DNA of 6,403 nucleotides from a virus. The position numbers and the translations under genes are program-made. Position 1 is the stretch's first letter, and every line of letters starts with the position of its first letter. The DNA is taken from positions 1 through 6,403 of the IMG/VR virus record IMGVR_UViG_3300035492_000278, one strand, 5' to 3'. Below, one piece after another: positions 2,341 to 6,403 of the stretch. The notes beneath the pieces are model-generated. The model was not told the origin of the DNA. It made no database searches and saw only the letters and a list, made by a program, of their open reading frames with translations.

Positions 2341-3741
2341 TCAGCCTCCGAACGTAAGAGCACGCGCAAGGAAAACAGCCGAAACTATAAGAACCGTTTT
2401 GATAAATTCAAATATCCAACACATGTTCCAGAAAGAAATCGTGCCGTAATTGGCCCAACTAGCGATATTGAATTGAAGGCTAAATGTCGGACAACTACCG
2501 CTGAAATTTGGAACAAAGGAAGAGAGAAAAGCCAGAAATGCAGAATTTTCTATGTTCGAACTAACGCTATGCCAAACACCCGCTAGACCATCGGGATATT
2601 TCTGCTGATAGAACGGCTCGACTTCTGGCATATCAGCATCAGAATATTCAATAGCGCCTTCGTCCTGATCTTGCTCTTCGGTAACTTCCTCGGGGTCGGT
2701 CTTAGTTTCAGTTTCGGTGGTACCATCTGGATTAGTTGTAGTTACTGTCGACGTTTTGCGATAGTCGTAATAGTTATCACCGTAGGTAATGTCGATCTGA
2801 GTGTTAGTTGTAGAGCTGGTGGTTCCACCTGGACCAGTAGTAGTGATGGCCGGGCCCTTTTCAGTGAGCGTTGATGGGCCCTCGAGCTGCGTTGACGTGC
2901 GCAACTCCTGATAACAGGACTCAGGAGCGAGAGAGCCCTCGCAGTGCTCGCGAAGCCGATCTTTGAGCCATTCGGAATCTTGAGCGGCAGCGGCGGCCTC
3001 CATCAGATCGAAATCCGCATCGGTCGCAGCGCGATAACCACCCGCAGCCTCGCACGCACCAGTAGAACTGTTATAGGTAGAACCCGCAGGGCACGAGTCG
3101 CCATAACGCTGAATAGAGACCCTGGATTCATAGCCATCAGATTCACGTTTCGCAATACAACGATACTGAGTATCGGAAACGCGCTCTAGGCGATCATAGA
3201 CATAGTCATTTCGCCAGCCCGCTGCAGCAATCTGAGAGCAAACCTCGACAGGTGTTAAGCCGGTATAGAAACTGGATGTACCGTCCGAACCAATATGTTC
3301 CGTCGCACTTTTCCAATAATAACCGCCAGGAACAGGACTGCCCGAGGCTGGAACTTTAACTTGCCCATCGTCAATAATTCCGTCAACCGCATCGAGCATA
3401 TATTGCAGACCAATACTTAGCCCGACACCAACTACACCGCCACGCAAGGACCCAGACATGCCCTTGATAGTGCGAGGAATCGAATAATCATATTTCGGCT
3501 TAATGGGCAACCTGGTGCCCTTGGAGCCGCCGCCATAGGACGACGGAATATATTCACCGTCCAGGGGCTGCCCGGTGATGATCAACGAATCACCGGACTT
3601 CGCAGCACTACCGCTGCCAACTACCGAACCGTTGGACGGCAGAGAAACATATTTGCGAGTGGCAGCATGCAATTGGGTGCTAGAGAAAATAGCCAGCACT
3701 GCAATCAAAAACGCTGCCGGATACCGGAGATAAATGCCCAT
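2341..3741 (-). CDS. pIII-like adsorption / minor coat protein (gene III analogue), 466 aa
   Basis: Signal peptide MGIYLRYPAAFLIAVLAIFSSTQLHA|AT. Cys-containing N-terminal domains, a Thr/Gly-rich then acidic linker (TTTGPGGTTSSTTNT...TETETKTDPEEVTEEQDQDEG), and a C-terminal hydrophobic anchor IKTVLIVSAVFLARALTFGG. GGAGGGG lies 10 nt upstream of the ATG, and the position after the coat gene is as expected. Confidence 0.8.
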   Translation of the reverse strand: MGIYLRYPAAFLIAVLAIFSSTQLHAATRKYVSLPSNGSVVGSGSAAKSGDSLIITGQPLDGEYIPSSYGGGSKGTRLPIKPKYDYSIPRTIKGMSGSLRGGVVGVGLSIGLQYMLDAVDGIIDDGQVKVPASGSPVPGGYYWKSATEHIGSDGTSSFYTGLTPVEVCSQIAAAGWRNDYVYDRLERVSDTQYRCIAKRESDGYESRVSIQRYGDSCPAGSTYNSSTGACEAAGGYRAATDADFDLMEAAAAAQDSEWLKDRLREHCEGSLAPESCYQELRTSTQLEGPSTLTEKGPAITTTGPGGTTSSTTNTQIDITYGDNYYDYRKTSTVTTTNPDGTTETETKTDPEEVTEEQDQDEGAIEYSDADMPEVEPFYQQKYPDGLAGVWHSVSSNIENSAFLAFLSSFVPNFSGSCPTFSLQFNIASWANYGTISFWNMCWIFEFIKTVLIVSAVFLARALTFGG

Positions 3742-3873: not shown

Positions 3874-4008
3874 TTAAGCTTTCTTCACGCCGCGCTTGCC
3901 CAGATCGATGCCTTTAAACGACATGGCAATACCGATAATGGCAACCCCGGCAGTACCAACCCAAGTAGCGACGGAAGAAAAATCCACAGCAGCGAAAATC
4001 TCGGTCAT
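3874..4008 (-). CDS. Major coat protein (gene VIII analogue), 44 aa, no cleavable leader (Pf3-like organisation): MTEIFAAVDFSSVATWVGTAGVAIIGIAMSFKGIDLGKRGVKKA
   Basis: Hand-translated and not in the ORF track. AAGGAG lies 8 nt upstream of the ATG. The protein has an acidic N-terminus, a hydrophobic core and a Lys/Arg-rich C-terminus. A terminator follows, and the gene lies between the small hydrophobic ORFs and gene III. Confidence 0.85.
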   Translation of the reverse strand: MTEIFAAVDFSSVATWVGTAGVAIIGIAMSFKGIDLGKRGVKKA

Positions 4009-4021
4009 TTTTTGTTGCTCC

Positions 4022-4150
4022 TTACAGTTTTCGAATGGCGCTGATAGCAACGCCGATGGTAAACCCCAACGCCCAACCAGAGAGCGTTAGGAAAAACCCA
4101 GCGGTATACACGGTCGTTACGCATTCGGTAGTGAGTGTCGTGCATTCCAC
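4022..4150 (-). CDS. 42-aa small hydrophobic virion-type protein (gene IX/VII analogue): MECTTLTTECVTTVYTAGFFLTLSGWALGFTIGVAISAIRKL
   Basis: GTG start at 4150 with GGAG 8 nt upstream. One TM segment and a basic C-terminus. The stop TAA (4022-4024) sits inside the coat gene's SD region. The frame is open upstream as far as the ssb stop, so the start could be further 5' (GTG at 4201). Confidence 0.5.
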   Translation of the reverse strand: MECTTLTTECVTTVYTAGFFLTLSGWALGFTIGVAISAIRKL

Positions 4151-4181: not shown

Positions 4182-4271
4182 TCATGACCGCGCCCACTCA
4201 CGCACGACGACGCAGACGACGAAACAGACGCCGACCCAAATCGCCAGATTGATGGTCGCGGCCCAAATCAC
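4182..4271 (-). CDS. 29-aa small hydrophobic protein (gene VII/IX analogue): MIWAATINLAIWVGVCFVVCVVVREWARS
   Basis: GTG at 4271 overlaps the ssb stop as GTGA, and GAAGG lies 7 nt upstream. The size, hydrophobicity and position match the tiny tip proteins of inoviruses. Confidence 0.45.
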   Translation of the reverse strand: MIWAATINLAIWVGVCFVVCVVVREWARS

Positions 4272-4549
4272 GACGTCGCCTTCACGGCCGCCGCCACCGG
4301 AACCAGCACGGGCCGAACCTCAAGCGAACCGAACCGAGACGGATAGAACGACTCATCATCGAGTTCATACACGCCCACCGGATAGGGACGGGCATCCTCG
4401 TCGAGCGTGATTTTGATTTTGTCGGGATAGCGAGAGCCTGCCTTGAACAAGAGCGCCTGCTGCTCGCGGATGCTGTATTCACGGCCGGTACGTTCGGATT
4501 TGCCCGAACGCTCCTTGATCTGGGTGGACTCGATTTCAATTCGTGGCAT
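4268..4549 (-). CDS. ssDNA-binding protein (gene V analogue), 93 aa
   Basis: MPRIEIESTQIKERSGKSERTGREYSIREQQALLF...PYPVGVYELDDESFYPSRFGSLEV has the size, the position (after rep, before the coat genes) and the beta-rich OB-like pattern of inovirus G5P/Pf3-type ssDNA-binding proteins. GAGG lies 9 nt upstream of ATG 4549. The track's 28-aa N-terminal extension lacks an SD. Confidence 0.7.
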   Translation of the reverse strand: MPRIEIESTQIKERSGKSERTGREYSIREQQALLFKAGSRYPDKIKITLDEDARPYPVGVYELDDESFYPSRFGSLEVRPVLVPVAAAVKATS

Positions 4550-4718
4550 TGTGGAAAACCTCACATTTAAGTTTTGAGCAGAGTTGAAATTACTACAGGG
4601 CGAAAAGTAGAACGAGCCGAAACACAACGTCAAGTATTTTTTTACACTAGTGAACTTTTCGTGTGATCCCGGTCAAAAAATCGCCCACACTGAACAGGAG
4701 TTCAACAGAGGAGAAGGC
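4550..4718. promoter_or_regulatory. AT-rich divergent control region between the ssb/structural operon (-) and the RHH gene (+)
   Basis: About 40% GC. Minus strand: TTGACG (4628-4633), 18 nt, TACTTT (4604-4609). Plus strand: TTGAAA (4584-4589), 18 nt, TAGAAC (4608-4613). Inverted repeat TGAAC-agga-GTTCA at 4691-4704, with a further GTGAAC at 4641-4646. The promoter hexamers are only partial matches. Confidence 0.35.
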
Positions 4719-4979
4719 ATGAAATCACTAAAACTCGACGACGACGATCTGCACCGACGATTCAAATTGGCATGCGTTGCCACGGGCACGCCAATGATGA
4801 CAGCAGTTCATCAAATGGTGACCGCATGGGTTGCTGACGTGGAACGACGAATACCCGATATCCGTGCAGAATCACCCGCCAGCACGGGTCGCGGTGCTCG
4901 CCGGTCGCCCGGCAGACCCAGCCGCCACCAGACGCTCGCCGCCAACGGTCAGCAGGAAATCCCCAACGACGCACCGTGA
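4719..4979 (+). CDS. Ribbon-helix-helix (CopG/Arc/MetJ-like) DNA-binding protein, 86 aa, with a low-complexity tail; candidate phage repressor
   Basis: MKSLKLDDDDLHRRFKLACVATGTPMMTAVHQMVTAWV fits the RHH pattern: a beta strand with alternating residues, helix A, a G-x-S/T/P turn and helix B. GAGGAG lies 5 nt upstream of ATG 4719. The track start at 4650 has no SD. Nucleotides 4762-4979 are antisense to the rep 3' end. Confidence 0.6.
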   Translation: MKSLKLDDDDLHRRFKLACVATGTPMMTAVHQMVTAWVADVERRIPDIRAESPASTGRGARRSPGRPSRHQTLAANGQQEIPNDAP

Positions 4980-5745
4980 CCGGCAGGTTCCACCAAGCAC
5001 GCTCGAGACGGTGAGCCATGGACAGGCCGCCAACGCCGTAGAGCCGCGCGCCTTTCGGCATCACGTCGTCAGTCCCTTTCGACGCATATTTGGCCAAATA
5101 TCCGACCGCGTTCCGTGCACGTTCGGTGCGAGTCATGCCGTGGGGCCACCAGCCGCGACGATCAGCTTTCGGCATGGAGAGACCACGACCAGCAGGGTGC
5201 CAGAATAGGCAATGGTAATGAGGACGCCCGGCCTTGGTCAGCTCCAGAACCCAGACGTAACGGACCACATGCCCCTTCCGTTTGTACCACTGCCGAACGC
5301 GCCGAATGTACTCGGAAACATGCTCAGGCTGCCAATCGACACCAGGCCGATAGGTCAGCGTGACCATGAGCGCGTGGTGCTGGCGATTTTGCATCGCCCT
5401 GGAGTGCATGCGAGCCGTCGTGATGACGTTTTTTTTCAGACGGCGCAGGCGCATCGCCTGATGGTCAATCTCGATGGCGTTTTCGTCAACAGGCCACGTT
5501 TTGGTTGGAATGCTGCAACCCCACTCATGAGGCTGCGGTACTCCTGTTTCACAGCTCGGCCGCTGACATATCGTGGGCGTTTTTTTAACGGGCGTTCCAG
5601 TTGTTTTTATATGGACAAGCCCGCGCCCTGCGGGCGCTTGCGCCGCTGCGCGGCTGATCGCGTCAGCCCGACGATTAGCAACATATTGACGGAGTTGATC
5701 GCGCGACAGGAAATCGAGCGGAGAAAGCGGGGGAATGTAAGACAC
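4762..5745 (-). CDS. HUH-superfamily rolling-circle replication initiator (gene II analogue), up to 327 aa
   Basis: Motif 1 is ALMVTLTY, motif 2 is PHYHCLFW (HUH), and motif 3 is YLAKYASK (a two-tyrosine Y-x2-K-Y-x2-K, as in the phiX174 gpA-type YVAKYVNK). The longest ORF starts at GTG 5745 without a clear SD. An in-frame ATG at 5454 (MRLRRLKK...) is an alternative start. Confidence 0.85.
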   Translation of the reverse strand: MSYIPPLSPLDFLSRDQLRQYVANRRADAISRAAAQAPAGRGLVHIKTTGTPVKKTPTICQRPSCETGVPQPHEWGCSIPTKTWPVDENAIEIDHQAMRLRRLKKNVITTARMHSRAMQNRQHHALMVTLTYRPGVDWQPEHVSEYIRRVRQWYKRKGHVVRYVWVLELTKAGRPHYHCLFWHPAGRGLSMPKADRRGWWPHGMTRTERARNAVGYLAKYASKGTDDVMPKGARLYGVGGLSMAHRLERAWWNLPVTVRRWGFPADRWRRASGGGWVCRATGEHRDPCWRVILHGYRVFVVPRQQPMRSPFDELLSSLACPWQRMPI

Positions 5746-5817: not shown

Positions 5818-5855
5818 CGCGCTATCTGCTGGGAACGGGGTGGCGCGTTTTTTTT
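5818..5855 (+). terminator. Plus-strand intrinsic-terminator-like element (10-bp stem, T8)
   Basis: 5818-5827 pairs with 5838-5847 (CGCGC/GCGCG core plus A-T and three G-U pairs) around a 10-nt loop, followed directly by T8 at 5848-5855. Confidence 0.45.
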
Positions 5856-6046
5856 CGTCCCGAGAAAACTACTCGCACGGAGTAGAAAAGGCAACCCGCG
5901 CCGAAACCGCGGAACTATCGTGACCTGCCCGTCGGAGGGGCTGACAGTCCGGGAGAGCGGCAGAGAGACGCCCGGAGCGGCCCCATTTAGGAGGATCGGG
6001 GCGCGGGTTGAGTTGGTGGCAGGACAGTAGAGCGAGGACCGCGAAC

Positions 6047-6084: not shown

Positions 6085-6202
6085 CGTTGAGGGGAAATCG
6101 GCCGCTACGCGGGTATCGTCGCTGGAACCGCGAGGCAATCAGTCCAGAGCGTGCAGGCGACTAATCGCCGCAAGCGGCGAGGTCGAGGCCACCGTCAATT
6201 CT

Positions 6203-6298
6203 CGTTACGTTGCATTATATCTATCGGGCCGGGGCGGTCGATCAGAATATACAATAAATTTCCGTTACGTTACGCCGGCCTATTTATCGTTACGTAAC
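6203..6298. repeat. Array of three exact CGTTACGT copies (6203-6210, 6263-6270, 6288-6295). The third lies within the perfect 10-bp palindrome GTTACGTAAC (6289-6298); candidate operator/iteron set
   Basis: Exact 8-mers within 93 bp of AT-rich DNA directly upstream of the plus-strand module. The palindrome abuts the TATAAT box. Confidence 0.6.
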
Positions 6299-6403
6299 TA
6301 TAATTAATCCATACCTAGCCGGGATGGAGTAACCGACATGACCAACGAAGAACGCCAGTTCCACCTACGGATGGCAGAGAACATCGAAGCACGCGCGAAC
6401 GCC
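6297..6403. repeat. Terminal redundancy copy 2 (identical to 1-107). It contains a duplicate of the first 66 nt of the 42-209 CDS at 6338-6403
   Basis: Exact match to 1-107. This is the signature of a circular molecule linearised with overlap, not a biological LTR. Confidence 0.95.
6299..6304 (+). promoter_or_regulatory. Putative -10 box TATAAT for the 42-209 / 206-784 operon (same bases as 3-8)
   Basis: Perfect sigma70 -10 consensus 38 nt upstream of ATG 42. There is no good -35 (TTTCCG/TTTATC at best), so the site may be activator- or extended-context dependent. Confidence 0.4.

Follow-up and report, generated by a model that had tools for sequence, protein, structure and literature searches.

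A ParG-like ribbon-helix-helix gene set antisense against the end of rep, a likely regulator of the main promoters in a clade of environmental inoviruses

Arc and Mnt, the small ribbon-helix-helix (RHH) repressors of phage P22, act at closely spaced divergent promoters. On plasmids, the RHH protein ParG represses parFG, with one dimer on each 4-bp box and 4-bp AT spacers between the boxes (PMC3130281), and in the rolling-circle replicon pMV158, which has an HUH Rep, repB is controlled by the RHH protein CopG together with an antisense RNA, RNAII (PMC4485353). Filamentous phages also have such proteins: small RHH regulators, among them the omega-like ORF13 of PMBT54, are thought to control maintenance or expression (PMC10534721), and families with RHH domains were catalogued in inoviruses by Roux et al. 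2019 (PMC6813254). Here we describe a ParG-like RHH gene at positions 4719-4979 of a 6,403-nucleotide (nt) stretch of viral DNA, IMG/VR record IMGVR_UViG_3300035492_000278 (we call the whole stretch "the window"), where it lies between rep and ssb of an inovirus and is, for most of its length, antisense to the end of rep. RHH regulators in inoviruses were already noted in the last two papers; in the papers that we read, we found no description of the position between rep and ssb or of the antisense overlap with rep.

The window holds a complete circular inovirus genome. An exact direct repeat of 107 nt stands at both of its ends (1-107 and 6297-6403), and because these ends are identical, the assembly closes into a circle with a unit length of 6,296 bp. 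An HUH rep, a gene V-type ssb, a small major coat gene, a pI/Zot ATPase, a single orientation, and the small circle mark it as an inovirus (Tubulavirales). The circle contains no integrase gene, a search of the window gave no E. coli-type dif/attP site, and the phage is probably episomal. Two genes frame the one at issue: rep, the HUH rolling-circle initiator (4762-5745, minus strand; Pfam REP_ORF2-G2P, E=4e-34), and the gene V-like ssb (4268-4549, minus strand; Pfam Phage_DNA_bind, E=6.5e-18), from which the RHH gene diverges. Between them is a gap of 212 nt (4550-4761). On the plus strand, the Shine-Dalgarno (SD) sequence GAGGAG (4708-4713) is followed 5 nt later by an ATG (4719-4721), and the frame then runs for 86 codons to a TGA (4977-4979), 261 nt with its stop. 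An earlier reading of the letters of this DNA, which we call the sequence-only reading, had proposed this open reading frame (ORF) with its SD, its start, and the gap, and all of them hold as proposed. A longer, GTG-started version (4650-4979, 109 amino acids) was tried and rejected: upstream of the ATG, the relatives differ by insertions and deletions that are not multiples of three, and no protein conservation is seen there.

What kind of protein would such a gene make? Residues 1-48 (4719-4862, plus strand) are predicted to form an RHH DNA-binding domain, made of a β-strand (KSLKLD), helix A (8-22), and helix B (26 to about 48), and residues 49-86 (4863-4976, plus strand) form a predicted disordered tail rich in R, P, S, G, and A. 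The Pfam ParG family (PF09274) matches with 24.2-25.2 bits against a gathering score of 21.4, and RHH_10 matches the window's protein at E=6.6e-5. ParG in the PDB (1P94) is matched at E=5.5e-5 by a profile of 3 sequences and at E=1.1e-8 by a profile of 14 lineages of relatives, with H12, R14, F15, K16, A18, C19, V30, Q32, V34, and W37 common to the family profile and 1P94; 11 of the 14 lineage members match ParG at E≤0.01, and the closest annotated relatives are plasmid ParG genes. In an AlphaFold2 monomer model, residues 8-22 and 26-51 are helical, the score (pLDDT) exceeds 90 for residues 11-40, and residues 52-86 are disordered at a pLDDT below 50; residues 1-7, with the alternating pattern of KSLKLD, come out extended and are not called a strand, as expected for a model without the dimer partner. 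Among phages the domain stands apart, with no relative in 50,697 deposited phage genomes (tblastn) and no PHROG or NCBIfam match; a scan of viral contigs with the RHH protein of one relative, L084 (L numbers denote lineages), gave no match.

A first protein search with the single RHH sequence returned two relatives only, because gene callers rarely call the ORF; it had been missed in seven of nine related contigs fetched through their rep proteins. We therefore reached the relatives through rep, which gave about 17 lineages with reps 54-68% identical to that of the window. In 14 of the 17, the RHH ORF is intact in the corresponding position; all 14 keep a start codon (ATG, GTG, or TTG) preceded by an SD-like purine run, and K2, L4, K5, L11, H12, K16, C19, and E42 are invariant. 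The 52 more distant loci (rep 35-54% identical) hold no RHH homologue, and we used them as the RHH-less set in the box comparison below; in those of the Xanthomonadaceae type, ssb follows directly on rep. The sequence-only reading had called for a look at the conservation of the ORF in relatives and had named its loss beside a kept rep as grounds for refutation. Conservation is what we find in 14 of 17 lineages, and losses of just that kind are found in the other three: L069 (about 3095-3130), in which a 35-nt deletion takes out the β-strand and the sibling L070 is intact; L082 (1200-1400), which has lost the N-terminus, carries a stop in place of W37, and has a gap of only 80 nt; and L083 (1040-1312), with a 1-nt frameshift. 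Some of these could be assembly errors. Because the gene is lost in 3 of 17 lineages with rep kept, we take it to be dispensable in some contexts, not spurious.

Two kinds of evidence free of rep support that judgment. Codons 2-14 lie outside rep, and there the minimum numbers of changes at codon positions 1, 2, and 3 are 8, 4, and 27 (p=9e-6), with mean pairwise differences of 0.21, 0.12, and 0.61. The second kind, and the strongest single argument for a real gene, comes from two relatives, L084 and L085, in which the whole RHH domain is intergenic and the overlap with rep is confined to 102-113 nt of the tails. The same domain is conserved in both, and since it stays the same protein where it is outside rep, rep cannot be what conserves it. 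On this evidence, 4719-4979 is a genuine gene for a predicted ParG-like RHH DNA-binding protein, carried by a clade of environmental inoviruses without an isolated member; the assignment to the RHH class that the sequence-only reading had made is upheld by a ParG match above the Pfam gathering score, by the match to 1P94 at E=1e-8, and by the 14 intact lineages.

How can one stretch of DNA serve two proteins at once? The overlap of the RHH gene with rep covers both strands at 4762-4979, that is, 218 nt or 83.5% of the RHH ORF, from RHH codon 15 on, as the sequence-only reading had measured it; that reading spoke of the last 72 codons of rep, which strictly are 71 sense codons plus the stop and 2 nt. 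In the overlap, the first positions of RHH and rep codons pair with each other, the second position of an RHH codon lies opposite the third of a rep codon, and the third lies opposite the second. To see which frame is selected where, we held one protein fixed, redrew its synonymous codons, and compared the identity in the other frame: the null for RHH keeps the rep protein, the null for rep keeps the RHH protein, and neither accounts for shared ancestry. Over RHH codons 17-38, RHH-frame identity is 0.44 against a null of 0.16, and rep-frame identity is 0.38 against 0.23 (z=10, with ancestry ignored), changes per position being flat at 34/29/31. Over codons 39-48, the RHH frame scores 0.48 against 0.24 and the rep frame 0.69 against 0.23. 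Over codons 49-62, the RHH frame falls to 0.275 against 0.226 and the rep frame stays at 0.62 against 0.17, with the changes in the tail region peaking at rep third positions. The tail acts as an internal control: its low score shows that common ancestry does little by itself to inflate the identity statistic.

Selection on the RHH frame is, then, clear in codons 17-48, and selection on the rep frame is clear in RHH codons 39-86. Only RHH residues 1 to about 48 evolve as protein, and the functional protein is, by prediction, this N-terminal domain, with DNA binding as its predicted activity. The R/P/S/G/A tail is a by-product of antisense reading through the conserved C-terminal part of the rep domain and exists because the frame stays open there; the claim of the sequence-only reading that the opposite strand dictates this low-complexity tail has stood up well. 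Its broader claim, that both frames constrain the same bases, needs trimming: it is true of at most about 30 codons (within RHH 17-48), and elsewhere one frame dominates. The two conserved cores truly share about 10 codons, where RHH DVE(R/K) lies opposite rep GRVFAxPR. When the rep protein was kept, 72% of the simulated antisense frames over codons 17-62 contained a stop and 28% were open; the RHH frame is open over these codons in all 10 lineages of the main clade.

The relatives also show how the overlap varies. The last 24 or so codons of rep, which run antisense through RHH helices A and B, encode a tail (residues 304-327, with the motif SPFDxLLxAL; 4762-4836 with the stop, minus strand) antisense through RHH codons 15-39. 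The outgroup reps P0034 and P0037, of the L084/L085 type, diverge fully after GRVFAxP(R/K), and the tail is hence specific to the window's clade and coincides with the RHH overlap. The rep TGA falls in RHH codons 15/16, a conserved F/L-K, in all 10 main-clade lineages; both frames are intact in these 10, with the rep stop at RHH codon 15, and in L081, L084, and L085. L081 (the lineage of P0019, P0020, and P0025) marks the other extreme: its rep (1078-2157) is extended at the C-terminus by about 30 residues, the whole RHH gene (1805-2134), start included, is embedded in it in antisense, and the rep-ssb gap is 115 nt. Among the relatives, then, the overlap can be as short as about 100 nt, with only the tails involved, or can take in the whole RHH gene, and the RHH protein has a total length of 62-117 residues. 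Because the length of the overlap is not conserved, the overlap itself is not the essential feature. The orientation is constant, convergent with rep and divergent from ssb in all 17 lineages.

If the RHH protein binds DNA, where might it do so? The gap between rep and ssb contains a σ70-like promoter directed at ssb, made of a -35 TTGACG (4633-4628), an 18-nt spacer, and a -10 TACTTT (4609-4604), with an A-tract before it (4604-4633, minus strand). A promoter driving ssb from within 4550-4718 had been part of the sequence-only reading, and this conserved candidate fits that claim. We recognized it only through conservation across lineages together with a looser scan, 12 of the 15 lineages scanned having an A-tract-preceded TTGAC-17/18(-19)-TAnnTT toward ssb; a stricter promoter and terminator scan of 4300-5200 returned no site. 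At 4605-4612 (plus strand) lies the box AAGTAGAA, a GTAG/CTAC tetramer with an A-rich spacer, which we regard as a candidate operator sub-site. A degenerate second copy is found 24 nt off at 4582-4589 and is intact in L002, L055, and L059. Read as CTAC on the ssb strand, the AAGTAGAA box is present in one to four copies in each lineage, at the -10 or slightly beyond it, with spacings of 8 (three tandem copies in L071), 16, 24, and 32 nt. TTCTAC boxes are present in 12 of the 14 RHH-bearing intergenic regions and at chance level in 51 RHH-less relatives, a co-occurrence that is confounded by common descent. The candidate box of L082, one of the lineages with a broken RHH gene, has also drifted (AAGTGGAA).

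A second site lies upstream of rep, where a promoter-like element (5866-5894, minus strand) consists of TTGCCT (5894-5889), a 17-nt spacer that contains a TTCTAC box, and TAGTTT (5871-5866); on the plus strand, the box reads GGAGTAGAAAAGG at 5879-5891. The element belongs to a conserved noncoding block (5840-5895, minus strand), about 100-150 nt upstream of rep, of the form gTTGCyTTTTCTACy-N8-TA(C/G)TTTTC-N6-GACGAAAAAAAACGCGC. We found the block in eight lineages, the window's and L055, L064, L067, L068, L070, L071, and L079, in each of which the box stands some 135 nt upstream of rep, between a -35-like TTGCyT and a -10-like TA(C/G)TTT. This block could be the rep promoter, P_rep, with its operator, or it could be the plus-strand origin or nick region.

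In the window's own lineage, the inverted repeat CTGAAC-AGGA-GTTCA (4690-4704, plus strand) lies just upstream of the SD; it is a lineage-specific insertion of 11-15 nt, found also in L002, L055, and L059 with a variable loop, and in L002 the arms carry a compensatory double change (CTGAGC/GCTCAG). It may be a hairpin in the 5' untranslated region or a terminator-like element for rep on the other strand. A near-consensus promoter directed at the RHH gene is seen only in L080, at the equivalent place (TTTACA-17-TATAAT). Inside rep and antisense to it, a terminator-like hairpin with a run of eight T lies at 5416-5436 (plus strand); its run of T is complementary to the conserved rep codons that spell RLKKNVIT. 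The hairpin could end the RHH transcript some 440 nt beyond the RHH stop codon, or it could be a coincidence.

We can now ask what such a gene might be for. That the RHH protein regulates the phage's main promoters seems likely. The specific form of this that we favor, with moderate confidence, is a dimeric repressor of the ssb promoter, P_ssb, and of P_rep and probably also of its own back-to-back promoter. An RHH dimer or an array of dimers would bind the GTAG/CTAC boxes with their A/T spacers, which overlap the -10 and the early transcribed region of the ssb-directed promoter, and would find a further target in the box between the -35 and -10 of the promoter-like element upstream of rep. 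Once bound, the protein would keep down expression of the replication and structural operons, probably together with that from the adjacent RHH promoter, and this repression would set the level of an episomal chronic infection. Since the RHH gene and rep converge in every lineage, the RHH transcript must run antisense to the 3' end of rep, and collision with transcripts that read through from rep to ssb, or pairing to them, may add a second layer of control. An antisense or transcriptional-interference switch, which the sequence-only reading had suggested as a possible control of lysogeny or chronic infection, is plausible.

A bolder version would make the pair rep/RHH a selected convergent-gene switch with about 30 dual-coding codons, in which polymerase collision or RNA pairing, together with shut-off of P_ssb and P_rep by the box array, makes the phage bistable, either a silent episome or a producer of virions. 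The end of helix B would lie opposite the end of the rep core, helices A and B would lie opposite a rep tail (SPFDxLLxAL) with an acquired function, and the relatives would record stepwise overprinting, from tail against tail through domain against tail to full embedding; the scheme would apply to integrase-less inoviruses. We consider this whole chain unlikely.

Returning to the repressor of P_ssb and P_rep, we must admit that several observations weigh against it, beyond the common descent that clouds the box count and the simulation null that leaves ancestry out. The repressor role is a proposal from sequence, with both binding and expression predicted. When Foldseek compared the AlphaFold2 monomer with PDB structures, no match reached significance (best E=4), though many of the weak ones are RHH proteins. 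No convincing promoter directed at the RHH gene is seen in the window, where a TTTACA at 4641 has a poor -10. The boxes overlap or resemble the -10 (TACTTT) and could be plain promoter elements or sites for Rep or the origin, and in L070 they are 22 nt apart, which is no multiple of 8. The gene is not essential, as the 3 losses among 17 lineages indicate. Finally, two plus-strand ORFs at 42-209 and 197-784, located where inovirus regulators usually sit, could be the main regulators, and they bear on the suggestion of the sequence-only reading that the phage has no repressor of the conventional kind.

What else, then, might the gene be? One thought is that the protein is a plasmid-like factor that maintains the episomal replicative form and does not switch the structural operon. 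It could be a ParG- or omega-like centromere binder, coating the box array and relying on a host ParA, or it could control copy number in the manner of CopG and act on rep only. Its nearest sequence relatives are, after all, plasmid ParG proteins; the 6,296-bp circle, with neither integrase nor E. coli-type dif site, is probably episomal; a box lies upstream of rep; such a role has been proposed for the omega-like RHH protein of the Pseudomonas inovirus PMBT54 (PMC10534721); and the rolling-circle plasmid pMV158 controls rep by just such a pair, CopG and an antisense RNA (PMC4485353). Yet the genome has no ParF/ParA gene, Zot being its sole NTPase, and the protein starts at the β-strand, without the N-terminal tail of about 30 residues by which ParG recruits and stimulates ParF. 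There are also only 1-4 boxes, against 8-20 in parH/OF, and the main cluster sits on the ssb promoter, not on rep. We regard maintenance as an unlikely role. Two narrower forms were rejected, a ParFG-type partition protein, given the missing tail and a complete genome in which Pfam finds rep, ssb, Zot, and DUF2523 only and no ParA, and a member of a CopG/RNAII-type operon, given that the RHH gene follows rep, converges on it, and covers only its 3' end. It is a shade less probable still that the protein is real and autoregulated, that its overlap and orientation reflect mere compaction of a 6.3-kb single-stranded DNA phage, and that the boxes belong to RNA polymerase or Rep. The overlap does vary freely, from 102 nt to complete embedding, the box does coincide with the -10 TACTTT in both promoter-like elements, and boxes are kept in lineages with a broken RHH gene (L083, L069). 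Against this reading, all 17 lineages keep the convergent orientation, and a single -10 element does not explain boxes that in several lineages (L071, L067, L077, L079, L081, and L084) are placed past the -10 or recur in tandem every 8 bp.

Two further possibilities can be given little weight. Long antisense ORFs are frequent in GC-rich genes, codons 17-62 are open by chance in 28% of simulated single sequences, and gene callers skip the ORF in most related contigs, all of which would suit a spurious, untranslated antisense frame of a GC-rich rep; we find this very improbable in the face of a ParG match above the Pfam threshold and at E=1e-8 against the PDB, strong third-position periodicity outside rep, a domain conserved in relatives where it does not overlap rep, and a frame open in 10 of 10 main-clade lineages. 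Even fainter is the chance of an antitoxin or an inhibitor that binds Rep, with the disordered C-terminal tail neutralizing a partner. Many RHH antitoxins do have a disordered C-terminal toxin-binding tail, and the weak Foldseek matches include ParD, AtaR, CopA, and TacA; against this, no toxin gene lies downstream, only rep in antisense, and the tail is not conserved beyond the level that rep imposes, in proteins of 62-117 residues. We rejected the antitoxin candidate on the ground that the plus strand downstream has no ORF with a family match, the sequence there being the antisense of rep.

The rest of the genome is soon described. On the minus strand, beyond ssb, come the major coat gene (3874-4050; phrog_3354, E=1.5e-25), a pIII-like gene (2341-3741), a DUF2523 gene (2001-2369; Pfam), and the Zot/pI gene (874-2217; Pfam Zot). 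As called, the Zot ORF (447 amino acids, TTG start) shares more than 200 nt with the DUF2523 gene; the Pfam Zot match begins only at residue 73 (MINLILGQPGGGKS), and for this reason the true start is probably there. The two plus-strand ORFs mentioned above are convergent with Zot, and the one at 42-209 (55 amino acids) has no family match, whereas the one at 197-784 (195 amino acids) matches phrog_10506, a class of unknown function, and contains a basic motif, GRPxxGKALSNAERQRxYRER, that recurs in a 58-amino-acid ORF of L001 (5483-5659). Both diverge from a large intergenic region in which, at 6200-6300, three or four ACGTAACG-like repeats surround a minus-strand promoter-like site, TCGACC-16-TATAAT (6241 to 6214); this repeat region may be a second regulatory node. 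A megablast of the whole window against deposited phages gave no match, and an Rfam scan of the window gave no RNA family at E≤1.

Why should one care about so small a gene? In bacteria and phages, it is rare for an antisense overlap of more than 200 nt between protein-coding genes to be well supported, and such overlaps are often disputed. On the comparative evidence, this one is a clean example from nature of the same DNA coding for two genes, one on each strand. The strength of the case lies in comparison across several genomes, in its internal controls (an N-terminus outside the overlap, a tail that follows rep, and relatives in which the domain does not overlap), and in the graded series of overlap lengths among lineages. 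It also offers a candidate master regulator, with candidate operators, for environmental and apparently episomal inoviruses. Because the first 14 codons lie outside rep, the RHH gene can be knocked out without touching rep, and the repressor hypothesis is directly testable through them.

How does the locus compare with the systems with which we began? ParG of TP228 (1P94, PF09274) is the best match, with about 40% identity over helices A and B and the shared pattern H-x-R-F-K-x-A-C ... V-x-Q-x-V-x-x-W, and the phage's GTAG/CTAC boxes, set apart by A/T spacers and for the most part by multiples of 8 bp, recall the ParG operator; we treat this resemblance of layout as a lead and not as a test. 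The phage protein differs in having neither the flexible N-terminal tail (ParG residues 1-41 are unmatched, and the noncoding sequence upstream of the RHH gene holds no counterpart of it) nor a ParF partner, in the sequence of its boxes and their far smaller number (1-4 against 8-20 in parH/OF), and in being phage-encoded and antisense to rep, with its disordered tail at the C-terminus instead of the N-terminus. Like pMV158, this is a rolling-circle replicon with an HUH Rep and a small RHH protein, its antisense RNA and repressor role being predictions only. In pMV158, however, the CopG gene precedes repB within one operon and RNAII acts on the rep leader, whereas any phage antisense RNA would anneal to the 3' end of rep, and the main candidate target of the phage protein is the ssb promoter. 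ORF13 of PMBT54, which resembles omega of pSM19035, is likewise a small RHH protein of a filamentous phage, but our protein has no sequence relative in the deposited phage genomes or in PHROGs, and to Arc and Mnt, which belong to a tailed double-stranded DNA phage and involve no gene overlap, it shows no detectable sequence relation. The closest isolated relatives by rep are the Xanthomonas phages Cf1c, Lf, XacF1, and Xf109 (Xylivirus), at about 43% identity (measured over residues 90-302 for Cf1c, Lf, and XacF1), and they share the gene order rep-ssb-coat-pIII-pVI-pI. The sequence-only reading had remarked that an RHH gene wedged between rep and ssb departs from the usual junction, and so it does: in Xf109, rep runs straight into ssb and overlaps it directly, with no gap and no convergent gene, and the genes for its regulators, one an XRE helix-turn-helix protein and the other a DUF3653 protein, lie between pI and rep.

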